Origin: Mytilus edulis | Taxonomy: Eukaryota | Length of the DNA: 64,000 nucleotides | Direction: 5' to 3' | Assembly (NCBI RefSeq): GCF_963676685.1 | Contig: NC_092344.1 | Location: 48,298,001 to 48,362,000, forward strand | In this document: positions 22,261 through 64,000 of the stretch, in pieces | Layout of the letters: each line of letters opens with the position of its first letter | Position numbering within the stretch: the first letter of the stretch is position 1 | Program-made: the position numbers and the translations under genes | Notes under the pieces: model-generated | The model's database searches: none | Told to the model about the DNA's origin: nothing | Seen by the model: only the letters and a program-made list of their open reading frames with translations

Positions 22261-23125
22261 TACAGTATTAAATAATATCAATAAAATACATGTATGATTT
22301 CGTTATTGTTTTGAAAAAAGAATGTGCTAATTAAGGTAATTTAAGTATTGAGAGAAGTCATTGTTTAAGTGAAAAACGAACAAGTGACTCTTTTGTTTAA
22401 AAAAAAAGAACCATTGAAGGAAAACAGAAACTATTAATTAATTCAATAACCCTGTAGAATGTGAACTAAAATTAGACGTCTGAAGAAACCACGTACGTAA
22501 GTTTTGAAGAAAAAAAAATGTTGAATAGCCTTATATGATTTAAAACCATAAAACCATGCATTATTATAGTGAGACACTTTCAGCAAAACTTGCTTTTAAT
22601 TTGTTGCATAAATAGTTACCTAGTTGGTGTATCTAAGGTGTATAGAATTTTCGGGGAAAATAAAAAGATACACGTTTTGATTTATTTATACTACCTTCAT
22701 ATCACCGGTGTTCATATTTTAAGATTGGTATGCTTTCGTCAAGTTCTCGTACCAGTAATTGTTACGTGTATAATTCTAATATTAACCAGTATTTTCATGA
22801 CTTTTCATAACATCTGCCCTTTTCTAATATAAACCCATGTCAAGCACTTGAAATTATTTTAAGGTATCAAAAGAATACTAAAAGTTATTTATAAATTTCT
22901 AATTATTGGTATTGAAAAAGATGGGTATTTTTTTCAGATGAAACAACTGAGTCTTGTACATTAACTTAGTAAAGCTTAACTCAAAACATTGTAACATTTG
23001 AAAATAGCTTAATAAGATATAATAAATAGAAATGATCACGTGCAACGTTTATTTTGGTAATACATGTATGGTTCATGTTGTAAATAATATTTACAGGTAT
23101 TGAAATTAATTGCAGACTTTCTAAC

Positions 23126-24721
23126 ATGTCCACAATGAAACGTGTGCAGTTTGCTGTTTCGGATGAAATGAACCACACTGCAGCATCTATATACGGGTCT
23201 GAGTTTTGTCCAAACCATCCTACATATAAAGTCGTATCCTGGTGTTCTACACATGAAATATCAATCTGCATGGTGTGTTTCAAGTTAGATCATGCCAAAT
23301 GCAAAGGAGTTGAACCACTCGAGGAGGCAATCAAAAGTACAAATTCTAAAGCCGAGTTAAAATCTTTAAGACAACGCGTTGAAGAAACTAGAAATATCTT
23401 CAAACGCCTAGTAAAAGACAGAAATCACAATATTGATGCCCTTGAAAATCAAAAAGATGTTCTCAAAGCTGATGTTAAGACGTTCAAAGAAAGAATTTAT
23501 CAACATCTTGAAAGATTAGAATATCGGTTAGAAAAGGAGATAGATTTAGCTTTAGATCGACATAAACACAAACTTGAAGACCAGATATTTGAATACAATC
23601 AAAGGGACGGTACGTTAGCATCCCTTTATAATGATCTTATACATATAAATGAGGATTCAACTGAAAACCATACTATTTTGTTTTTGAAAGAAGCAAACGT
23701 TGTCCAAAGAAAGGAAGAAGAGTTCCTAAAAGGGGATGTAGGATCGCTTAAAAATATTAATCTGCAGTTAAAAATGGACGAAACAGTCAGAAAGGTGGTT
23801 GATGTTCCGACAATAGCAAATGTCAAAATGGTAGAAAGTTACCCAACAAACCCGCCAGACTTACAATCACTTTCGAAGGACGATAAACAAACTGAAAGCA
23901 TGCTTATCAAAGTCGAGGAATCGGTAAAAGAGTACAATATGGACAAATTTAAATTCGTTTTCGAAAGAGATATAGATATAAAACCTACATTTTCGACAAA
24001 TGCTCTGGTCCCCGAAGTAACTGGTGGCATGATTTTACCAGATGGAAGATTATTTGTTGTTGATAAGGTAAATAAACGGTTGCTAGGATACACTGCCAAA
24101 GGACAGTTAGCCAAAGAAACCTTCATGGAATATGAACCATATGCAATGACATACCTTGATGTAAATAGATTTTATCTTACAGTTCCGAGTCAACAATGCA
24201 TCGAAATTCGAGATTATGGAGCACTTCAGTATTCCGAAAAGATTGATATAAAACATCATGTTTCTGGAATTTCGTCCTACGAAGATACCATTGCTGTCGT
24301 TTGCGAAAATTTTGGCATTGCTCTTTTGGACCAAACAGGAACAATGGTGAACAAAATAGCAATGAAAGGAAACAAAGAGGGTCCATTACATCTTTTAGGG
24401 AAAACTATTTGCTACGCTGAAAGTAAGAAAGGAACCATTCATGTATTAAGCGTTTCCGGAGAAATTAAATTTACGACTACCGTAAAAGGTTTAGGATACG
24501 TCCAAGGAATAGCGGTATTACGAGACAGCAGTTTCCTCGTTTCAAGGTCAAGTCCAGGAAACAAAGTCACGTGGCATTTTTCCCCTGACGGTCACCAACA
24601 AGCATTGCGTGAAGAGTTTGAATCCTTTAAATCGCCACGTTCAATAACTTACGAAAAGAAATTAAAGAAGTTGTTTGTCGCAAATGGAGTGCGAACAATA
24701 TCAATTTTCAGAGAAGTATAG
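23126..24721 (+). CDS. RING-less TRIM-like protein: B-box zinc finger, coiled coil, C-terminal NHL-like beta-propeller (531 aa)
   Basis: CPNH..WCSTH..ICMVC...HAKC B-box pattern; heptad-rich helix; repeats such as GGMILPDGRLFVVD and PRSITY..KLFVA; long uninterrupted ORF. Confidence 0.85.
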   Translation: MSTMKRVQFAVSDEMNHTAASIYGSEFCPNHPTYKVVSWCSTHEISICMVCFKLDHAKCKGVEPLEEAIKSTNSKAELKSLRQRVEETRNIFKRLVKDRNHNIDALENQKDVLKADVKTFKERIYQHLERLEYRLEKEIDLALDRHKHKLEDQIFEYNQRDGTLASLYNDLIHINEDSTENHTILFLKEANVVQRKEEEFLKGDVGSLKNINLQLKMDETVRKVVDVPTIANVKMVESYPTNPPDLQSLSKDDKQTESMLIKVEESVKEYNMDKFKFVFERDIDIKPTFSTNALVPEVTGGMILPDGRLFVVDKVNKRLLGYTAKGQLAKETFMEYEPYAMTYLDVNRFYLTVPSQQCIEIRDYGALQYSEKIDIKHHVSGISSYEDTIAVVCENFGIALLDQTGTMVNKIAMKGNKEGPLHLLGKTICYAESKKGTIHVLSVSGEIKFTTTVKGLGYVQGIAVLRDSSFLVSRSSPGNKVTWHFSPDGHQQALREEFESFKSPRSITYEKKLKKLFVANGVRTISIFREV

Positions 24722-31542: not shown

Positions 31543-34246
31543 TACGGGGCGCCGAAAGGGACTCTTGTGGTTTTGTACAAAATTCAATTCTGTCATAACA
31601 AAATCATTTTTGTCTTACAAAACTATGTGCTACAGACTTGTTTTGTGAGAACTTTAATTTTGTGATGACAAAATTCATTTGTGTAGACAAAATTCATTTT
31701 TGTAGACAAGATTCATATTTGTCATGACAAAAGTCAATTTTGTCTAAAAGGTATGCAAATATAAACATATTTGCATACAAAATTGACTTTTGTTACCTGA
31801 TATGGAAATTAAATCACAAAAGTGAGACAAAATTGACTTTTGTGAGACAAAATTGACTTTTGTGAGACAAAATTGATTTTTGTGAGACAAAATTCAATTT
31901 TGTGAGACAAAATTCAATTTTGTCAATTTTGTTGAGACAAAAGTCAATTTTGTTAATTTTGTTGAGACAAAAGTCAATTCTGTCAATTTTGTTGAGACAA
32001 AAATCAATTTTGTTGAGACAAAAGTCAATTTTGTTAATTTTGTTGAGACAAAAGTCAATTTTGTAAATTTTGTTGAGACAAAAGTCAATTTTGTCAATTT
32101 TGTTGAGACAAAAGTCAATTTTGTGACGACAAAATTCATTTTTGTGACGACAAAATTCAATTTTGTAACAACAAAATTGACTTTTATGAGACAAAATTGA
32201 CTTTCGTGAGACAAAAATCAATTTTGTTGAGACAAAATTCAATTTTGTCAATTTTGTTGAGACAAAAGTCAATTTTGTCAATTTTGTTGAGACAAAAGTT
32301 AATTTTGTCTCACAAAAGTCAATTCTGTCAATTTTGTTGAGACAAAAGTCAATTTTGTCAATTTTGTTGAGACAAAAGTCAATTTTGTCTCACAAAAGTC
32401 AATTCTGTCAATTTTGTTGAGACAAAAGTCAATTTTGTCAATTTTGTTGAGACAAAAGTCAATTTTGTCAATTTTGTTCAGACAAAATTCAATTTTGTCA
32501 ATTTTGTTGAGACAAAATTCAATTTTGTCAATTTTGTTGAGACAAAATTCATTTTTGTCAATTTTGTGTAACAAAAGTCGATTTTGTATGCAAATTAGTT
32601 CACAGAAACCAAACTAAACTAATTTGAATACAAAATTGACTTTTGTCGCCCAATTTTCAAATTAGGTAACAAAATTCAAGTCTGTGTAACAAAAATGAAT
32701 TTTGTCATGACAAAAGTGACTTTTGTCCGCTGATAGATAATTTTGTATGACAAAATTTTAAATTTGTAGTATGATACAAATTTTGTTAAACTGAACTTAT
32801 TTTTGTTGAACAAAAGTCACTTTTGTCCGTACAAAATTGAATTTTGAGTACAAAACCACAAGAGTCCCATTCGGCGCCCCGTAATACGGGGCGCCGAAAG
32901 GGACTCTTGTGGTTTTGTACAAAATTCAATTCTGTCATAACAAAATCATTTTTGTCTTACAAAACTATGTGCTACAGACTTGTTTTGTGAGAACTTTAAT
33001 TTTGTGATGACAAAATTCATTTGTGTAGACAAAATTCATTTTTGTAGACAAGATTCATATTTGTCATGACAAAAGTCAATTTTGTCTAAAAGGTATGCAA
33101 ATATAAACATATTTGCATACAAAATTGACTTTTGTTACCTGATATGGAAATTAAATCACAAAAGTGAGACAAAATTGACTTTTGTGAGACAAAATTGACT
33201 TTTGTGAGACAAAATTGATTTTTGTGAGACAAAATTCAATTTTGTGAGACAAAATTCAATTTTGTCAATTTTGTTGAGACAAAAGTCAATTTTGTTAATT
33301 TTGTTGAGACAAAAGTCAATTCTGTCAATTTTGTTGAGACAAAAATCAATTTTGTTGAGACAAAAGTCAATTTTGTTAATTTTGTTGAGACAAAAGTCAA
33401 TTTTGTAAATTTTGTTGAGACAAAAGTCAATTTTGTCAATTTTGTTGAGACAAAAGTCAATTTTGTGACGACAAAATTCATTTTTGTGACGACAAAATTC
33501 AATTTTGTAACAACAAAATTGACTTTTATGAGACAAAATTGACTTTCGTGAGACAAAAATCAATTTTGTTGAGACAAAATTCAATTTTGTTGAGACAAAA
33601 TTCAATTTTGTCAATTTTGTTGAGACAAAAGTCAATTTTGTCAATTTTGTTGAGACAAAAGTTAATTTTGTCTCACAAAAGTCAATTCTGTCAATTTTGT
33701 TGAGACAAAAGTCAATTTTGTCAATTTTGTTGAGACAAAAGTCAATTTTGTCTCACAAAAGTCAATTCTGTCAATTTTGTTGAGACAAAAGTCAATTTTG
33801 TCAATTTTGTTGAGACAAAAGTCAATTTTGTCAATTTTGTTCAGACAAAATTCAATTTTGTCAATTTTGTTGAGACAAAATTCAATTTTGTCAATTTTGT
33901 TGAGACAAAATTCATTTTTGTCAATTTTGTGTAACAAAAGTCGATTTTGTATGCAAATTAGTTCACAGAAACCAAACTAAACTAATTTGAATACAAAATT
34001 GACTTTTGTCGCCCAATTTTCAAATTAGGTAACAAAATTCAAGTCTGTGTAACAAAAATGAATTTTGTCATGACAAAAGTGACTTTTGTCCGCTGATAGA
34101 TAATTTTGTATGACAAAATTTTAAATTTGTAGTATGATACAAATTTTGTTAAACTGAACTTATTTTTGTTGAACAAAAGTCACTTTTGTCCGTACAAAAT
34201 TGAATTTTGAGTACAAAACCACAAGAGTCCCATTCGGCGCCCCGTA
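31543..34246. mobile_element. head-to-tail dimer of a ~1.35-kb non-autonomous TIR element filled with ~21/30-bp quasi-palindromic repeats
   Basis: copies 31543-32883 and 32885-34246; 36-bp TIR tacggggcgccgaaagggactcttgtggttttgtac; ATCGC duplicated at 31538-31542 and 34247-34251; empty site in duplicate B near 42088. Confidence 0.9.
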
Positions 34247-37390: not shown

Positions 37391-38593
37391 TCATTTTCCT
37401 GAAAGCGTATATTCAGCTTTGTAAACAGTGTAAAATGAAAGTGCAGTAATTGAAAGTATGCATATTGACAGCAAACACCAAAACGAACAGAAATCAATAG
37501 TGGACACATACTCTTTCCATGTAATGTAAATATGAGTTTCCTTTTCATCTTTCTGAATCTCCGATGATGTGTTCACACTCGTTCCTCTCTTATAGGTTAC
37601 AATGCGTTTTAGGAGACATGACGAAATAAATGTCTGTCCATTTCGAGCACAAAATCGGGATAAAATGGCTGAAAGCAACACAACCAGTGTACTTTGGAAT
37701 AGCTGCATCACTATAAATATATCCATAAAAGATATTGATTCCGAACTCTCTGGCAGAGACTGTCCAATAATAGTAAGAAACACACCGAAGGACAACCAAA
37801 CGGTTACCGTGTAACCCATGCGTTCTCCACTATCAGCAGGTATGGCAAATGTAAACAGATTCAAAATTGATAAAAGGACTAACGGCAGAACCATATTCAG
37901 CATAACATACAACGGTTTCCTCTGTAATGTGATAGAAAATATCACTAGAGATTCTTCGTGGTACTGTGCTGTACATGCTGAGGTTGAAATAACCGTCCAA
38001 ATTGTATTTTCTTTTATTGAGCGCTCCAATGCTATTCCTGACACATTTTTTATTAGAAGGGAAACATCTTTCAAACGCATACTCCAAGCTCCGAAAACAA
38101 ATTCGCAAGTTTGCCTGTCAAATGGAAAGAACGTCATTGACACTGGACAGTATGAATTAAATACTTGAAACGGTGTCCAATTGACCCTACCATCATGTTT
38201 GATTGTCGCCAATATCAAATCGGAACCGAGCTCTTTCATCCCTGTATAACTATCTTGTAAGGTTATATCCGGTTTCCATATCTCTGACTGAGGAAGGTAT
38301 ATATAGTCCAAGTCTCCATATTGTTGTCGGTTCCATGTTAGGAACTCATCATGCCAGCTTATATTAAGATATCCAATAGTCGTTAATCTTTGTTGAACTT
38401 CATCGAGTGTTATTAGTGAGTTTAATGTCAATTCAACATTTACGTAGATGGTACTCTCGTAATCTTGTACAGGTTTGGAATCTTTATCATATTCCTTTGT
38501 AAAGAATAGCTCCTTTTTCAAAGCTTTGAAATCACTTGAGTTTTGGCATAAAGAAAAACTGACAGTAGAAAACCAAATGATAAAAACAATCAT
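37391..38593 (-). CDS. intronless nicotinic acetylcholine receptor-like Cys-loop channel subunit (400 aa from ATG 38593)
   Basis: signal peptide MIVFIIWFSTVSFSLC, WKPDI, Cys-loop CPVSMTFFPFDRQTC, PADSGER, four TM segments. Confidence 0.92.
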   Translation of the reverse strand: MIVFIIWFSTVSFSLCQNSSDFKALKKELFFTKEYDKDSKPVQDYESTIYVNVELTLNSLITLDEVQQRLTTIGYLNISWHDEFLTWNRQQYGDLDYIYLPQSEIWKPDITLQDSYTGMKELGSDLILATIKHDGRVNWTPFQVFNSYCPVSMTFFPFDRQTCEFVFGAWSMRLKDVSLLIKNVSGIALERSIKENTIWTVISTSACTAQYHEESLVIFSITLQRKPLYVMLNMVLPLVLLSILNLFTFAIPADSGERMGYTVTVWLSFGVFLTIIGQSLPESSESISFMDIFIVMQLFQSTLVVLLSAILSRFCARNGQTFISSCLLKRIVTYKRGTSVNTSSEIQKDEKETHIYITWKEYVSTIDFCSFWCLLSICILSITALSFYTVYKAEYTLSGK

Positions 38594-39029
38594 CTTTAAT
38601 CGTTCCGCAATAAATTGATTATGGATAATCTTGTAGGCAACGGAATGAACCTGGAATGCAACTCTTTGGTATTTCACACTTTGAAATTGTAATTCAAAAG
38701 GATCAATATAATACTTTTCTGACTTTGTAAAAATCAATTCAAACTTTTAAAAAAATTATAATTTACAGTTTTGATCACTTTTTCATTTTGAAACATAAAA
38801 GAATAGATGCGGTTTAGCATTAGCACTTACACGGTTACGATTTCATTAACATGTGTCATTACAAATTCATATCCGACATAACTAAAACATCTCCGGTGAA
38901 TTAAATTTCAGAATTTTGAGTCCCTTTTTATAATTATACAATTTATTGTCAGGAATAATTCATCATGCTTCTTTGTTCTGTGAAGCGTGAATTGATTTCA
39001 TAAATTTAATCTCGCACGCATAACAAATA

Positions 39030-39896: not shown

Positions 39897-40098
39897 GTTT
39901 CTACCTCAGGAATAGATTACCTTAGCTGTATTTGTCAAAACTTGTAGGAAATTTGGTCTCAATGCTCTTCAATTCCGTACTTTATTTGGTCTTCTCAACA
40001 TTTTTGACTCGAGCGTCACTGCTAAGTCTTTTGTAGACGAAACGCACGTCTAGCGTTAACATAAAATTTCCATCATGGTATCTATGATAAGTTTATTT
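39897..40098 (+). mobile_element. partial retrozyme-like unit with degenerate hammerhead (CTGCTAA core)
   Basis: homologous to 41190-41390. Confidence 0.75.
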
Positions 40099-40260
40099 GA
40101 AAGATCATAAAATGGCTTCATTATTTCTGTTAGTGTTTGCTATTTGTTTACAAAAAATAGACTTTCGAATAAAAACTAAACAATATGAAAAGATAAATTA
40201 CATAGCATTTAACTTTTAAAAAGGGAAATAAGAATATCGCATCAGTTTATTTTGATATGA

Positions 40261-40304
40261 GCGTCACTGATGAGTCTTATGTAGACGAAACGCGCGTCTG
40301 GCGT
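40261..40304 (+). ncRNA. minimal type I hammerhead ribozyme (intact core)
   Basis: gcgtca-CTGATGA-gtct(tatgt)agac-GAAA-c(gcgc)g-TC|tggcgt; predicted cleavage after 40298. Confidence 0.88.
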
Positions 40305-41076
40305 ACTAAATTATAATCCTGGTACCTTTGAGAACTATTTCAAATATTTGGTTTCATAATTTCTATATATAACTCGGTGTTCATTTATAAATACTGGTTT
40401 TGACTAGCTTGACATTTTTGGTTAAAACCCACACGTTGATTGAGTTTTCTCGCGTTACCTCATCTATATATCCTTCTGGAACATTGCGCCGTGCAATAAC
40501 TAACTGAAAATTCAGAAATATTTCCCTCTATTTATTATTACGATTGTTGGACAATGGTAAAACACGAGATTAATTACTGCGCTTAGGGGAAATGGTGCAT
40601 ACAAATAATTTTGATCAATATTTAAAAGTTGTCACTTTTTCAAAACAGACACGTTGCAGTTTTCGCTATGATAAATACATTGCAAATATTTCTGAACCTA
40701 CAGTTATATATTTTATCATATCGGATGTCCATAACACGAGTTAAATTTCTATCCTTCTCTACGCATCTACTTGCACAGTGTTTTGTTGCCTGAAGAAAAC
40801 GAACTTAAAACGTGATTCAAGGACATAATTTGTGGCTAACCACATCGTGACACACTTATATAACATTGCAGTTAATATATGTTCTCATATCAAATAGCAC
40901 GCATTTGAACTGTTTCCGCGGGATTATCCCATCTAATATTACTTATCTCGATTTTACAAGTGTAGCTATGTTGTCAGTTTATATTGGACATGTCGCGTTT
41001 ATTATACTGTATATTTTGTTATGCTTTTCCTCATTGCTATATTGGTTTATATAGGAATCATATCATCATATCAGCT

Positions 41077-41764
41077 TGCTGGTTGAGATTTATTTCCCCG
41101 AGGGTATCGCCAGCCCAGTAGTGCTGACTTGTGTATTCATATAATAAATAAACTGTTAACAAATCTTTGAATTTGTGAAGTACTAAGGCTTTTCTACCTC
41201 AGGAATAGATTACCTTAGCTGTGTTTGGCAACACTTTAAGGAATTTTTGGTCTTCAATGCTCTTCAATGTACTTTATTTGGCCTTTTAAACTTCTTTTAA
41301 TTCGAGCGTCACTGATGAGTCTTTTGTAGACGAAACGCGCGTCTGGTGTATATATAAAAATTTTATCCTGGTATCTATGATGAGTTTATTTGCAACCACT
41401 GGGTCGATGCCATTACTGGTGGAGATTTATTTCCCGAGGGTATCACCAGCCTAGAACCATCACCTCTAGATCTGTGTTGACTTGAGTTATCATTGATATG
41501 TTCATAATAATAAATTAACTGTTTACAAAACTTTGAAGTTTTGAAAAAACTAAGGCTTTTTTTACCTCAGGAATAGATTACCTTAGCTGTATTTGGAAAA
41601 ACTTTTAGGAATTTTTGGTCTTCAATGCTCTTCAACTTTGTACTTTATTTGGCCTTTTTTTTTAACATTTTCTGATTCGAGCGTCACTGATGAGTCTTTT
41701 GTAAACGAAACTCGCGTCTGGCATACATATAAATTTTAATCCTGGTATCTATGATAAGTTTATT
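41077..41764 (+). mobile_element. tandem retrozyme-like insertion (~2 units) with hammerheads at 41306-41349 and 41681-41724
   Basis: direct repeat; 375 nt between predicted cleavage sites 41343 and 41718; absent at the homologous site in copy A (~31280). Confidence 0.85.
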
Positions 41765-42935: not shown

Positions 42936-44138
42936 TCATTTCCCTGAAAGCGTATATTCAGCTTTGTAAACAGTGTAGAATGAAAGTGCGGTTATCAATA
43001 GGATGCATATTGACAGCAAACACCAAAACAAGCAGAAATCAATAGTAGACACATACTCTTTCCATGTAATGTATATTTGAGTTTCCTTTTCATCTTTCTT
43101 AATCTCCGATGATGTGTTCACACTCTTTCCTCTCTTATAGGTTACAATGCGTTTTAGGAGACATGACGAAATAAATGTCTGTCCATTTCGAGCGATTAAT
43201 CTGGATAAAACGGCCGACAGTAACACAACCAGTGTGCTTTGGAATAGCTGCATCACTATAAATATATCCATAAAAGATATAGATTCCGAACTCTCTGGAA
43301 GAGACTGTCCAACAAGAGTAAGGAACACACCGAAGGACAACCAAACGGTTACCGTGTAACCCATCCGTTCACCACTATCAGCAGGTATGGCAAATGTAAA
43401 CAGATTCAAAAGTGTTAAAAGGACTAACGGGAGGACTAAATGCATCATAACATACAACGGTTTCCTCTGTAATGTGATAGAAAATATCACTCGAGATTCT
43501 TCATGGTACTGTGTTGCCTTTACTGAGGTTGAAACAATTGTCCAAATTGTATTTTCTTTTATTGAGCGCTCCAATGCTATTCCTGACACATTTGTTATGA
43601 GAAGGGAAATGTCGTTCATTTGCATACTCCAAGCTCCGAAAACAAATTCGCAAGTTTGCCTGTCAAATGGAAAGAACGTCATTGAGACTGGACAGTATGA
43701 ATTAAATACTTGAAACGGTGTCCAACTGACACTACCATCATGTTTTATTGTCGCCAATATCAAATCGGAACCGAGCTCTTCCATCTCTGTATAACTATCT
43801 TGTAAAGTTATATCAGGTTTCCAGATGCTTGACTGAGGAAGGTATATATAGTCCAAGTCTCCATATTGTTTTCGGTCCCATGTTAGGAACTCGTCATGCC
43901 AGCTTATATGAAGATATCCAATAGTTGTTAATCTTTGTTGAACTTCATCGAGTGTTATTAGTGAGTTTAAGGTCAATTCAACATTTACGTAGATGGTACT
44001 CTTATAATCTTTTACAGGTTTTGAATCTTTATCATATTCCTTTGTAAAGAATAGCTCCTTTTTCAAAGCTTTGAAATCACTTGAGTTTTGACATAAAGAA
44101 AAACTGACAGTAAAAAAACAAATGATAAAAACAAGCAT
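42936..44138 (-). CDS. intronless nAChR-like Cys-loop subunit, close paralog of 37391-38593 (400 aa from ATG 44138)
   Basis: same motifs and same length; near-identical protein. Confidence 0.92.
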   Translation of the reverse strand: MLVFIICFFTVSFSLCQNSSDFKALKKELFFTKEYDKDSKPVKDYKSTIYVNVELTLNSLITLDEVQQRLTTIGYLHISWHDEFLTWDRKQYGDLDYIYLPQSSIWKPDITLQDSYTEMEELGSDLILATIKHDGSVSWTPFQVFNSYCPVSMTFFPFDRQTCEFVFGAWSMQMNDISLLITNVSGIALERSIKENTIWTIVSTSVKATQYHEESRVIFSITLQRKPLYVMMHLVLPLVLLTLLNLFTFAIPADSGERMGYTVTVWLSFGVFLTLVGQSLPESSESISFMDIFIVMQLFQSTLVVLLSAVLSRLIARNGQTFISSCLLKRIVTYKRGKSVNTSSEIKKDEKETQIYITWKEYVSTIDFCLFWCLLSICILLITALSFYTVYKAEYTLSGK

Positions 44139-45590
44139 CTTTAATCCTTCCACAATAAAGTAATTATGAATAATCTTACAGGCAACGGAATAAACCTGGA
44201 ATTCAACTCTTTGATATTTCACAATTTGAAATTATGATTTAACATAATCAATAGAACACATTTCTGACATTGTGAAAATCAATAGAAAATTATTTTTTTT
44301 CAAATAGTTTTTAACACTTTTTAATTTTGAAAAACGAAAAAAATAGACCCAGCGTAGCATTCGCACTTACACTAATACGATATCATTAAAATATTTCAAT
44401 ACAACATCAGGCAGAAATAAGCCATCCCTCGTGTATTAAATTTATTATTTAAATTAAAGTGTTATCTTTTGAAAATGCAGTTAAAATTTATGAATGTTAA
44501 TTATTTTGAAGAAATACAGCGATACTCTATTTCAATTTGGATTTTTACTTTTCTACAGAAAAAATACTCTGTAAAATCGTTAAATTGATTTCAAAGAAGG
44601 AAAATTTAAACTGTCAAAAATTGTTGTTTGCCATTTCCTTGTACTCTGACGGTCTTCACGGAAAACTGGTTTGTCAGACCTACAAAAATTCTTACATATG
44701 AGAGGGGGTGAATAAACTCATCATAGATACCAGGATTGAAATTTTATATTCACGCCAGAAGCGCTTTTGATTATTTGATCTCTGAAGCGTGAAATATTTT
44801 ACCGGATCCAAAAAAGCAGTACATGAAAAATTGATCATGCTATTTTGTTGTCAGAAGCGTTAAATATTTATTGTGCATCTGTTGATTATTTATTTAGGAT
44901 TATTTATCAATTATGGACTTTGTACGACGTCAATTTGTTGTATATGGACCTGTTCAGATTATATCAACCGATTGCCAATGTGATCTAACAGGTCCATTAT
45001 AAAGCGTATTGACTAAGTGAAAGTCCTACATTTGAAAATGCCTGTACCAAGTCAGGAATATGACAGTTCTTGTCCATTTGTTTTTGATGCATTTTATTAT
45101 TTGATTTTGCCATGTGATTATGGACTTTCCGAATTGATTTTCCTCTAAGTTTAGCATTTTTGTGATTTTTACTTTTTATATATTACATATATAAATAATG
45201 TATTAGAAAATGGTGTTCAGTGTTTTTTCGGTGAATTTTTAAATCGTATTTTGCAATAATGTGTTAACATTAAAATATCATATTCTTTGAACAACTTTAT
45301 AGCTTGTTGCATTACTTTCTTGAATTCTTAGCGTCTGCATTTAAACTTGCAAACTTTCTTTTCGTCTGCTGCGGCGCTTCGTCCATGGTTGTTATGTTTG
45401 ACGTAATGACGTCATAAATCTTTTAGCAATATATTTTTTTTTATTTTGACCGTCAATATACATAGAAATAGAAAAAAGCGTCAATATCCCTTAAAATAGA
45501 AACGAGGCTTCGGATACGTAAAATAACCTGTGAAACATGTGATCGTCATCGCCAATGAAAACAATAGTATGCTACACCATATATGATATA

Positions 45591-49892: not shown

Positions 49893-51218
49893 ATGTTTTC
49901 GTATTTGTGCTCTATCATTATACTATTATCATTTGTACTTAATGCAAATGCTGATGAACAAAAAGAAGATGAATCGAAAAAAGAGGAATACAAACCTATA
50001 CAGGAACTTATAAAAAATGTGACAAATGGAAGAAATAAAGAGGTCAGACCTGTCAACAATTGGGACGAACCTGTTATAATTTACTTTTATTTTCATATGA
50101 CTTATATTCAGGAATTCGACGAAGTTGCCGGAAAATTAAGTTTAAACGGATATTTTGGAGTTCAGTGGAGAGACAATACTGTATCATGGGATCCTAGCGA
50201 ATATGGCGCTTCTTCCTTTACATTCAATGAAGAATTATTTTGGAAACCAACCTTTATAATGTCAAATCCATATGGAGAACAAAAAATATTATATAAAGAT
50301 GATAGTGTAAAGAGGGTGCATTACACTGGACAAATTGATTGGTTTCCAAGCGATGCATTCGATATTTCATGTCAGGCTGATGTTACAGATTATCCATTCG
50401 ATACACAAACATGTACTATAGCATTTGTTTTATCGGCATATGACGAAAAAGAGGTAATTTTATGGCCAACAGCTTTTATAACTGAGTGGTTTGTCCCACA
50501 TAAAACATGGGATTTGATTGAGACGAATCTGACTAGAATTGCTTCTCCACAGGTGGCAAATTTTCATATCAAACTGAAGAGAAAGCCTATGTTTTTTGTT
50601 TTCAACCTAATACTGCCAATAGTTCTTATGTGTATTCTTAACCCTTTTGTCTTTCTACTACCAGCAGATTCAGGTGAACGGGTTGGATTTTCCATAACAG
50701 TATTATTGGCCATTGCAGTATTTCTGACGATTTCTGCCTCTGGTCTTCCGGCAATCTCAGATCCACAAATACCAACATTATCTATTCTTTTATTTGCTGA
50801 CGTCACTTTTAGTGGCGTAATTGTTATACTAGTCATTATAAGTTTACGTTATTATCTGCGTGATGAAAATATTCCAGTTTCATATCTTGGAGAAAAATTT
50901 GTGACGATTTGTCGTGTACTAAAATGCGGTTGCTGCTGCAGGAAAGGGACGAAAGGTAAAGGTGACGAGTATGGAAACAAACATGAAAACAATGATAGTG
51001 TGGATATCAGTAAAATAAAACTTTTTGGATCGGAGTACCAGTATCGAGGAACTAATAGTGAGGAAATCAACTCTTTTACCTCCAAAGATGAAATTACATG
51101 GAAGAATGTCGGAGAAGAACTTGACTTTGTTTTTGGCACTTTAAGTGCTGTTTATATGGTAACAGCACATTTATTGTATATTCTTGGAATTGTACTAGAT
51201 TTTCCTTTATTTTCATAA
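49893..51218 (+). CDS. intronless divergent nAChR-like Cys-loop subunit (441 aa from ATG 49893)
   Basis: signal peptide, VRPV, WKPTF, Cys-loop CQADVTDYPFDTQTC, PADSGERVG, four TMs, CGCCC cluster in the M3-M4 loop. Confidence 0.92.
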   Translation: MFSYLCSIIILLSFVLNANADEQKEDESKKEEYKPIQELIKNVTNGRNKEVRPVNNWDEPVIIYFYFHMTYIQEFDEVAGKLSLNGYFGVQWRDNTVSWDPSEYGASSFTFNEELFWKPTFIMSNPYGEQKILYKDDSVKRVHYTGQIDWFPSDAFDISCQADVTDYPFDTQTCTIAFVLSAYDEKEVILWPTAFITEWFVPHKTWDLIETNLTRIASPQVANFHIKLKRKPMFFVFNLILPIVLMCILNPFVFLLPADSGERVGFSITVLLAIAVFLTISASGLPAISDPQIPTLSILLFADVTFSGVIVILVIISLRYYLRDENIPVSYLGEKFVTICRVLKCGCCCRKGTKGKGDEYGNKHENNDSVDISKIKLFGSEYQYRGTNSEEINSFTSKDEITWKNVGEELDFVFGTLSAVYMVTAHLLYILGIVLDFPLFS

Positions 51219-58432: not shown

Positions 58433-58699
58433 TGTATTCTAGCGGCAATTCAGGATCTTTTATCTTCGTACTCTCACAGAACATATTGGAGAATCTTTTT
58501 TGTTTGTCTAGTGGTGCAATTGTTATTTACTATGAATGAGTATTCACAGAAATTAATGTCTCTTTAAATATGTGTCTTCTCTAAAATAAAGAAATACTAT
58601 TTATGATATCAATTGTACGACCCTCTAACCATTTGACCTATGAAGGTATTTTCACTAAAGTTACAATGTATACAATAGCTTAAACTCTCTTTTGCATTT

Positions 58700-59115
58700 T
58701 AAATTTCTGATTCTAGCGACACTGATGAGTGTATTTAGACGAAATGTCCGTATGCCATACACAAATTATCAATCTGTTATCTAGTTAGTCTTTTGTAAAA
58801 CCACTGAGTCCTCCCGTCTCCCATTGTATGATAAGCCCAGGAAACAGCACGTCTGTGTTGACATAGATCATCATTGAAATGGTAATATAAATTAGTAAAC
58901 TATTAAACAAAGCTTTGAATTGTTCGAAATACTAGGGCTTCCCTCTCTCAGGAATATATTACCATGATTACCTCAGCTGTTTAAGTGAAATCTTTCAATT
59001 AATTATTTTAAACTTAGGTCTTTCTTTTCTATTTAAGCATCACTGATAAGCCTTTTGTTGACAAAACGCATCTCTGACGTACAAAATTATAAGCTAGGAA
59101 TCTTTGATGAGTTCT
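58700..59115 (+). mobile_element. old retrozyme-like unit with two decayed hammerheads (~58716-58757, ~59037-59080)
   Basis: ctgatgagtgtatttagacgaaa and ctgataagccttttgttgacaaaac, with spacer homologous to 41350-41680. Confidence 0.7.
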
Positions 59116-60299: not shown

Positions 60300-60870
60300 C
60301 ATTTTCATGTGCATGTCTATCAATTATCAATGATGGTCAGAACAAATTAGATGAAACTTGATTTAGGAACAAAAAGAACTTTATACTTGATACGAGATGT
60401 GAACACAGGACAAAACAAAGATGTCTTACCTGTCAATAAACCTGTAAAAGTCGTTTTTTTCATATGACGTTTCTTCCTTTACTTTCAATTTATTTTGAAA
60501 AACCAAGATTTATAGGGAAACTTATGTATCTCGTTTTGGATCTCTTATTGACAATTGAAACAATGTGTATTAGATTAATTAAATCTCTTTTTTTCCTACT
60601 CCTAGCAGATTCATGTGAAAGAAATGGATTTTGAATTAGTCTGATTAGGTATTGCCGAATTTCTTACAATTGTTGCGTCTGGACCTCTAGCACTCTTAGC
60701 ACCACAGCTTTCATAATTATCTATGCTCTTTACTGACATTGAATTTAGTACCGTGTTTGATATATTAGTCATTATAAGTCTATGAATTTCCCTCCGTTAT
60801 GAAAATGTTTTGGTGTCAAATTCCGCAGAAAAATTTGTTAAATATTGTCGTGTACAAAGACTTGAAGCAA
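60300..60870 (+). pseudogene. internally deleted nAChR-like pseudogene related to 49893-51218
   Basis: LIRDVNTGQNKDVLPVNK, HMT, SSFTFN-LF*K, LLLADSCERNGF*, EKFVKYCRV segments match the neighbour; stops and frameshifts present. Confidence 0.8.
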
Positions 60871-61729
60871 AGGGAAGTAAGCTTCTTTTAATTTGCTTTA
60901 AATGGATGTAGATGTAATCCAGAGGTTGGCAATCAAAACGTCTACTACTTATATGTTATAGTTGGCTATACAGTTTTGGCCATGCTCATTGTTGAAGTCC
61001 GTACAATAACCTATAATTCTTAATTTCAGTGTCATTGATAATTGTCTCATTGGCAATCATATTACAACTCTTTTTTTTCAAACATTTGAATGAACTTTGT
61101 TTATTGTCGATTTTTGTTTAAAAGCTCATGAATAGTTTTGTCTTTTGAATTATTCCATATTATGTCATACCGAGACCTTTTAAGACTTGTCATAAGTTGT
61201 ATGTTATTTGTTTACTTGAAAACCAAATAAAGTTTGCTGATGAAACTTAAGATAAGTGCTCTTACCACTATAAAGATGTATTTCGTTTCAGAAATACCAT
61301 ATATATGTACATTGAATGCGATTGGCAGACCTAGCCACTCATGTAAATATATGATTCTAAAATCAAAACTCAATATAGTTAAATGATAAAATTTGAAATG
61401 ATTGTGCCAAGAACAGTTTTTTCAGCTCTCTTCTTTATTACCCCTGAGACAAAAAAAAAACCCAAATCATTATACAACCAAATGCATCACAGAAGATTTT
61501 TTTTTTATTTTCGATAACTCGATTAACTGGTTGTCTCTACATTAATATTGTACAATATCAGTTTTCGACACAATATAGAGCCCTATTTTTTTTATTAGTT
61601 CGCTATGATCTCTTGACATAAACTTCATATTGTGATTCGCAGCTGAATTTTTCGATATCATGCCAGCAGTATGAGTTCTTTTTTTTTATGATATTTCTCC
61701 TATTTATAATGGCTGAAACACGTATGTTA

Positions 61730-62147: not shown

Positions 62148-62620
62148 AATAAACTTATCACAGATACCAGGATTACAATTTAATTTGAGCACCAGACGCG
62201 CGTTTCGTCTGCAAAAGACTTTCGAATCAAGTGATGTTCGAATCAAAATAAGTTGAAAAGGCCAAATGAGTACGAAGTTGAAAAGCAGTTAGGATAAAAA
62301 AAAATCCTAAACGTTTTGCCAAAACAGCCAAGGTTCGGTGTTATGTCGTTGTTCTCCTCTTATATTTAATGCGTTTCCCTCGGTTTTAGTTTGTTACCCC
62401 GATTTTGTTTTTTGTCCATGGATTTATGAGTTTTGAACAGCGGTATACTACTGTTGCCTTTATTTATCTATTCCTGATGAGGTAGAAAGCCTTAGAATTT
62501 CAAAAATTCAAAGTTTTGTTAACAGCTAATTTGTAATATGACCATATCGATGATAAATAATGTCAACACAGAAGTGCTGACTACTTGGTTTGTGATACCC
62601 TCAGGAAATAAAAACTCCAC
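62148..62620 (-). mobile_element. retrozyme-like unit (hammerhead core disrupted), interrupted by another repeat at ~62335-62466
   Basis: ccagacgcgcgtttcgtct is the reverse complement of the hammerhead 3' half; remainder homologous to 41400-41764. Confidence 0.75.
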
Positions 62621-63480: not shown

Positions 63481-64000
63481 ATGGTTTCATATGTGTGTTT
63501 AATAATAATCACATTGACATGTCTCGCATGGACAAAGGCCAATCAGCACAAGACAGATAAACCAGATTTGGACAGAAATAGGAGTGTTCATGACTTGATG
63601 CTAGAAGTGACCATAGAAAGAAACAATAAGGTATTACCTGTCAATAAATCGGGGGCACCAGTGGGCGTTTCGTCATTGAGGGTATTACCATCCCAGTAGT
63701 CAACACTTCGGTGTTGACATGAATATCAATTATGTGGTCATTTTTATAAATTTCCTGTTTACAAAACTTAGATTTTTTCGAAAATCTTAGGATTTTCTTA
63801 TCGCAGGCATAGATGATTTTAGCCGTATTTGGCACAACTTTTTGGAATTTCGAATCCTTAATGCTCTTTTACTTGTTTAGCTTTATAAGTATTTTGATAT
63901 GAGCGTCACCGATGAGTCTTATGTAGACGAAACGCGCGTCTGGCGTACTAAATTATAATCCTGATAACTTTGATAACCAGTTATTATCATTTTTATTTTA
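63481..64000 (+). pseudogene. 5' end of another nAChR-like gene, disrupted by a retrozyme-like insertion
   Basis: signal peptide, then HDLMLEVTIERNNKVLPVNKSGAPV matching QELIKNVTNGRNKEVRPVNNWDEPV; resumes as PVIII after the insertion. Confidence 0.75.
63663..63975 (+). mobile_element. retrozyme-like insertion with hammerhead at 63903-63946 (CCGATGA core variant)
   Basis: ACCAGT duplicated at 63657-63662 and 63976-63981. Confidence 0.82.

Follow-up and report, generated by a model that had tools for sequence, protein, structure and literature searches.

The window, a stretch of 64,000 nucleotides of the 1.37-Gb genome of Mytilus edulis (G000:C1:48298001-48362000), ends in an intronless nAChR-like sequence that is interrupted by a hammerhead-containing insert. 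The best overall explanation, in which we place high confidence, is that a 5'-truncated copy of a common retrozyme lies in an nAChR-like duplicate that was likely already dead. The initial annotation had described a retrozyme that knocks out a receptor gene, with a target-site duplication (TSD) and an inverted scrap of ribozyme at the 5' junction. The insertion of a known element is real and the inversion was refuted, and a knockout by this insertion is unlikely. We also examined 39 kb of further downstream sequence. The features at the insertion site are as follows, with monomer positions (m) counted from the ribozyme cleavage site.

63481..63662 (+): 5' part of the intronless nAChR-like pseudogene, codons 1-60, whose translation has 34-36% identity to the N-termini of intact neighbours
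63657..63662 (+): left ACCAGT, whose final GT also matches element sequence
63663..63975 (+): 5'-truncated retrozyme copy of 313 bp, 35% GC, monomer ~71-355 then 1-34
63665..63674 (+): complementary segment, native monomer sequence (family form GACGTTTCGTC) at the top of the predicted hairpin m47-98, with 9-10 nt complementary to the hammerhead's GACGAAACG(C)
63903-63946 (+): type I hammerhead-like motif, found by reading the letters, with predicted cleavage between 63940 and 63941
63976..63981 (+): right ACCAGT, in which AC and the next A match the element's own end (ACTA) and C63978 alone is an unambiguously duplicated host base
63982..64000 (+): start of the 3' pseudogene part, which runs on beyond the window to about G000:C1:48363046

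The receptor-like host sequence and its neighbours

The ATG frame at 63481 showed 36% and 34% identity to the N-termini of intact intronless nAChR-like neighbours. It does not end at ...GAPV, as had been noted, and instead reads 11 codons into the insert, to a TAG at 63697-63699, giving 73 aa. Homology restarts at the next codon after the insert and spans about 1,065 bp, with DNA identities of 70% and 73% to two intact neighbours located 13.6 kb upstream and 12.6 kb downstream of the pseudogene. The sequence beyond the window, where the rest of the frame was to be sought, is thus nAChR-like. The proposal that coding resumes at PVIII holds for the homology but not for the frame, as a 1-nt deletion follows within about 27 nt, and then nine more frameshifts and three stops.

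Relative to both intact neighbours, the host part carries 13 lesions besides the insert, comprising 10 frameshifting indels (the same number under three gap penalties) and three in-frame stops. The 182 nt upstream of the insert contain no frameshift and no stop. The first Cys-loop cysteine codon of the pseudogene is CGC. Changes specific to the pseudogene numbered 61, 57, and 83 at codon positions 1, 2, and 3, against 22, 16, and 59 and 39, 30, and 64 in the intact neighbours. Three downstream fragments were scanned, and two of them gave Pfam matches, to Neur_chan_LBD (E 0.0046) and Neur_chan_memb (E 4.4e-5), each below the Pfam cut-off. The pseudogene is therefore nAChR-like by homology, but it is not a functional intronless subunit gene, which would have an unbroken ORF that encodes the LBD, the Cys-loop, and the TM region. 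A splice from GT (63661) to AG (63979-80) was rejected as a rescue; it removes 320 nt, 1 above a clean excision, and the 13 other lesions are beyond such repair. In RNA-labelled runs, only 5-9% of the words were present.

Related genes and other features of the surrounding sequence are listed below.

37394-38746 (-): intact intronless nAChR-like ORF
42939-44231 (-): intact intronless nAChR-like ORF
49893-51218 (+): intact intronless nAChR-like ORF
L003:3061-4392 (+): intact intronless nAChR-like ORF downstream of the window; the four frames are of 431-451 aa
about 60,300-61,000 (+): second paralogue, decayed further, with large deletions inside it and no retrozyme
23084-24718 (+): intact single-exon frame of 545 aa, which we take to resemble a B-box/coiled-coil/beta-propeller protein
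31817-33752 (-): short-period tandem repeat yielding long low-complexity open frames

The four intact ORFs fall into two subgroups and form a tandem cluster with the two pseudogenes. The intact upstream neighbour at 49893-51218 showed 99% identity to Mytilus proteins and contained PF02931 and PF02932. In the two intact neighbours examined, the Cys-loop was present and the ectodomain vicinal cysteines were absent, so they look like non-alpha subunits despite their database names. The bivalve nAChR expansions in the accessible text of Jiao et al. (2019, PMC6896357) are similar, consisting of intronless, tandem subunit genes with PF02931 and PF02932, some of them inactive; the present copy differs in being a heavily decayed pseudogene. 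A search of the M. edulis genome for a closer intact paralogue found only the two neighbours at 70-73%. When the 61-aa N-terminus was used to search proteins for a full-length orthologue, P0004 alone was returned, which is weak evidence of absence. P0004 is a Mytilus edulis database model that fuses the first 50 codons of the pseudogene (63481-63630) to the downstream intact gene, with matches of 98% and 87%. This fusion spans a would-be 12.6-kb intron and is probably a prediction artefact.

The insert, its repeat family, and the complementary segment

The two ACCAGT copies (63657-63662 and 63976-63981) enclose exactly 313 bp, confirming the length reported for the hammerhead-containing unit inside the receptor frame. 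The identification of this unit as a retrozyme is supported, as it matches a Mytilus hammerhead repeat family of 355 bp. A first look gave 4,934 candidates, and 71 scored matches at 86-100% were obtained, many in tandem arrays with a period of 355-356 nt and a GC content of 0.35-0.38. The type I hammerhead motif was present in 83 cleavage-to-cleavage monomers, and the longest stop-free frame in a doubled monomer was 50 aa (+) or 86 aa (-). The family thus has the tandem 350-390-bp monomers, low GC, and lack of a long ORF that characterize retrozymes, and the insert is a truncated solo piece of it. Nine retrozyme-like loci were found in the 103 kb examined. Pieces outside the pseudogene belong to two subfamilies, and that at 40248-40340 is 98% like the young one.

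39907-40340, 41077-41757, 58690-59108, 62155-62605 (-), and L002:7109-7336 (-): other retrozyme pieces, two subfamilies

Mytilus retrozymes are described in the available text of Cervera and de la Pena (2020, PMC7229834) as about 5,000 hammerheads in 350-390-bp repeats that give circular RNAs, and self-cleavage and circular RNA expression were shown there for the Mytilus family. The present family resembles these non-LTR retrozymes of Mytilus galloprovincialis, by their published description and not by clone sequences, in its type I hammerhead, its low-GC tandem monomers (353-357 nt in that text), and its thousands of candidates, as well as in the two subfamilies in the window and in TSDs of >4 bp when present. 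The insert is unlike them in being shorter than a monomer and in having a single ribozyme of the U4C type. The insert is an unremarkable truncated copy of a mussel element that is already known and very abundant.

We compared the insert with the family majority, taken from the columns of 25 copies; two of these were mis-oriented (distances 0.52), and the column majorities were unaffected. The insert differed by 24 substitutions over the 317 columns compared and by a single 7-nt deletion, and 12 of the 24 differences were common to two or more other copies. The other copies (23 of 25, the remaining two being the mis-oriented rows) were mostly 1-5% from the majority. The hammerhead consists of stem I GCGTCA/TGGCGT, core CCGATGA, stem II GTCT/AGAC, GAAA, and a short palindromic stem III. 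Its core is a U4C variant, with C63910 against T in all 25 copies, and U4C lowers hammerhead activity considerably in vitro, according to the accessible part of PMC3088659. An Rfam scan of the window gave no family at the gathering score, hammerhead included, and folding of the isolated hammerhead gave no signal above shuffles. Under the published model, the insert would be unable to release a circle by itself, since it has a single ribozyme and less than one monomer.

The complementarity on which the inversion had been based was confirmed, as GCGTTTCGTC (63665-63674) is the reverse complement of GACGAAACGC (63926-63935). Other copies align from the third base of the insert and carry GTGGACGTTTCGTCCCCGAGGG at the same place and in the same orientation. 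We observed CGTTTCGT at m60-95 in 81 of 83 monomers from 29 arrays when one mismatch was allowed, and 75 of these were exact. The complement native to the family is 9 nt long, and the tenth base, G63665, is nearly private to the insert (A in 21 of 25 aligned copies and G in one).

Two other origins of the segment were weighed. One is that twin priming or template switching made it during insertion, and the perfect 10-nt match favours this, as does a modelled linear fold of the insert in which the segment pairs with the ribozyme strand. However, the segment is collinear in those 81 other monomers and unbroken with the sequence that follows, and a survey of the other insertions found an adjacent inverted piece at none of 50 closed 5' ends, a search in which only long inversions were detectable (E 1e-8). 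Because the segment is collinear in the family and other 5' ends lack adjacent inversions, we conclude that neither inversion nor template switching occurred, and we give that origin practically no credence. The other is that selection has kept the native 9-nt complement as an anti-ribozyme strand, blocking re-cleavage of the circle, as in plant retrozymes and viroids. A complement to the core of this length was matched in 17 of 1,000 shuffles, and the available text of PMC7229834 describes some mussel circles as exceptional in that the ribozyme is not predicted to fold freely. Against this, pairing of the segment with the core appeared in none of 42 predicted circular minimum-free-energy folds, imposing the helix would cost about 7.5 kcal/mol at 37 and 15 C, the segment is predicted to form the top of its own hairpin, and the complement is missing from two copies in the window (41436, +, and 62602, -) that belong to the other subfamily. 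Selection for an anti-ribozyme strand is thus doubtful, and the segment is best read as ordinary monomer sequence.

The target site and a possible route of insertion

Intact paralogue A has a single corresponding site, ACCTGT, followed by the same downstream codons, indicating that no host sequence was lost. The duplication at the insert is 2-6 bp long depending on attribution, as five of its six bases can also be explained by element sequence, and identical letters would result from a blunt insertion together with a single T-to-C change. Among other insertions of the family, an exact TSD of at least 6 bp was observed at 9 of 44 arrays, against 4.3% in an across-locus null (p 9e-5), and exact repeats of at least 5 bp at 16 of 44, against 13.4% of cross-locus pairs (p ~1e-4). 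Because of this family-wide excess of exact flanking repeats, a real TSD is the likelier reading, and the duplication at the insert is probably real, as judged from sequence. It begins 4-5 nt earlier than in other copies with clear TSDs. Together, the repeated ACCAGT and the family excess make the initially proposed target-primed insertion with a short duplication the probable reading.

The ends of the family members were not alike. Of the closed 3' ends, 47 of 50 lie at m34-48 past the cleavage site (52 arrays examined; BLAST ends overshoot by a few bases), and the same was seen for 16 of 17 in a set found with a mid-monomer query. The 5' ends are scattered from m3 to m354. The family therefore shows the fixed 3' end and variable 5' truncation of elements mobilized by Penelope-like elements (PLEs). 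Insertions of sufficient length span an intact cleavage site, suggesting that either a circular RNA or an uncut multimer was copied. In the 17-array set, a small and partly biased sample, no 5' end fell in m1-101 and nine fell in m102-148, just 3' of the m47-98 hairpin. Reverse transcription could often stop on reaching this hairpin.

We propose the following route. A Penelope-type (possibly Naiad) endonuclease/reverse transcriptase would nick the DNA at ACCAGT, and copying of the retrozyme RNA would begin at the fixed internal start of the family, about 35-40 nt past the ribozyme cleavage site. Copying would then cross back over the cleavage site, on a template that was presumably a circle or an uncut multimer, and would end about 35 nt before a full lap, where a 2-nt GT match may have joined it to the target and left the 2-6-bp duplication. 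On this route, the complementary segment at the 5' junction would be a chance stopping point of copying and not a product of the event.

Mobilization of retrozymes by PLEs was proposed in PMC7229834 and argued in the preprint of Li et al. (2026, 10.64898/2026.07.22.740005), as far as the accessible text of both goes. In the available parts of the papers on PLEs, Naiads included (Craig et al. 2021, PMC8557442; Frangieh et al. 2024, PMC11167929; Li et al. 2026), animal retrozymes are proposed as non-autonomous PLE derivatives, and PLEs share with the present family the fixed 3' end from an internal start of reverse transcription, variable 5' truncation, and partial tandems. In vitro, a Penelope-like element starts reverse transcription internally and its endonuclease prefers AT-rich sites, as described in the accessible text of PMC11167929. 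Unlike PLEs, the retrozyme has no ORF, and the 5' inverted segments that these texts call common in PLEs were found at none of the 50 ends here, where only long ones were detectable. The PLE PAc is described as priming without homology, in contrast to the 2-nt matches at both ends of the insert junction.

A candidate partner was found downstream of the window and elsewhere.

L003:6183-7094 (-), also L092 and L093: Naiad-like element in 4,031-bp tandem units, very abundant and near-identical, with 52,831 first-look candidates

In every copy seen, a single stop codon position lies between its two long frames of 424 and 480 aa; a GIY-YIG-like frame precedes the RT frame, and no hammerhead pattern was present. 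The retrozyme hairpin after the fixed 3' end gave no BLAST-level match to this one Naiad-like family. The tandem junction of the Naiad-like element aligned weakly and in register with the retrozyme hairpin, at a score that 17 of 3,951 other positions and 7 of 300 shuffles also attained. The complementary segment sits within the hairpin compared.

Order of gene death and insertion

Twenty-four population runs were listed, 17 of which contain half or more of the words, and we compared seven runs using contigs only. In five of the seven, under four organism labels, insert-bearing contigs crossed a junction, namely both junctions in X2 and X10, the left one in X1, and the right one in X5 and X8. 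X16 had depth at the right junction and no spanning piece among those listed, and X14 had no cover there. The suggestion that population reads might contain uninterrupted alleles was not borne out, as none was found among the contigs listed from the seven runs, in which rare variants are dropped. Long contigs of X1, X2, X5, X8, and X14 aligned to the broken 3' part without gaps and with 0-1% substitutions, and they therefore share the frameshifts that they span. A contig of X16 (L002:1058) has an extra T at the 64059 frameshift site, reflecting either lesion polymorphism or homopolymer slippage. X5 also contains a second haplotype (L002:1008-2123), about 11% diverged and at about one third of the depth, which lacks at least five of the frameshifts. 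Its 93 upstream letters did not align to the element, which hints at an empty site. It may be a presence-absence paralogue or the orthologue of another species.

We estimated the neutral period of the pseudogene using a codon model with a functional and then a neutral phase. The neutral time was 0.11-0.14 substitutions per site, with a profile range of about 0.06-0.19. The Jukes-Cantor (JC) divergence of the insert was 0.08 when all 24 differences were counted and 0.04 when the 12 differences common to at most one other copy were counted. The prior was set at 1:13, the insertion being one of 14 lesions, and the posterior that it was the first hit was 0.008-0.149 over eight settings, assuming distant paralogues as the reference and equal rates in both DNAs. 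An indel clock (1 in 313 versus 12 in 1,247 nt) was not significant (p 0.23). The dating intervals overlap and are compatible with simultaneous death and insertion.

These data bear on the view that the insertion was the first disabling hit and that the 13 other lesions came later, with the retrozyme acting as a gene mutagen. The insert divergence of up to 0.08 falls within the neutral-time range of the gene, the insert must be old because it is common to runs under four organism labels, and the 182 nt upstream of it are free of frameshifts and stops. The second haplotype of X5 is consistent with a more intact relative that lacks the insert; should it be a working close relative, the neutral time is limited to near 0.11, the first-hit figure becomes about 15%, and the death of the gene is more recent and nearer in time to the insertion. 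However, the insertion is one of 14 lesions, the point estimates place gene death earlier, and the posterior stays low. Half of the differences of the insert are shared with other copies, making it younger than 0.08, and the other copies are themselves mostly 1-5% from the majority. With nine retrozyme-like loci in 103 kb, retrozyme hits in dead DNA are expected, and gene death appears common here because the second paralogue decayed further with no retrozyme. We therefore consider an insertion-first history improbable, and the claim that this locus directly shows a ribozyme element mutating a gene is unsupported in view of the 13 other lesions, the retrozyme-free decayed neighbour, and a first-hit posterior of about 1-15%. 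By the time of the insertion, the receptor duplicate had likely become a pseudogene. A bolder form of the insertion-first history would make the insert both the founding lesion and the record of an almost complete lap of reverse transcription round a retrozyme circle, started at a signal shared with Naiads and stopped inside the same hairpin, so that a circular-RNA ribozyme element would have destroyed a protein-coding gene within the nAChR expansion of mussels. We regard this combined account as very improbable.

As it stands, the locus is of small significance, since the element has been described and exists in thousands of copies, and the DNA around this copy had probably lost its function already. 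A literature search for a retrozyme together with a pseudogene or gene disruption found no such case, and in Xenopus, retrozymes are depleted from exons according to the accessible text of a 2026 preprint. Had the insertion come first, the locus would illustrate concretely how a retrozyme can act as a mutagen in a gene family with rapid turnover. Three family-level features, namely 3' ends fixed some 40 nt beyond the cleavage site, copying through that site, and the excess of TSDs, bear on which enzyme and which form of RNA mobilize animal retrozymes.
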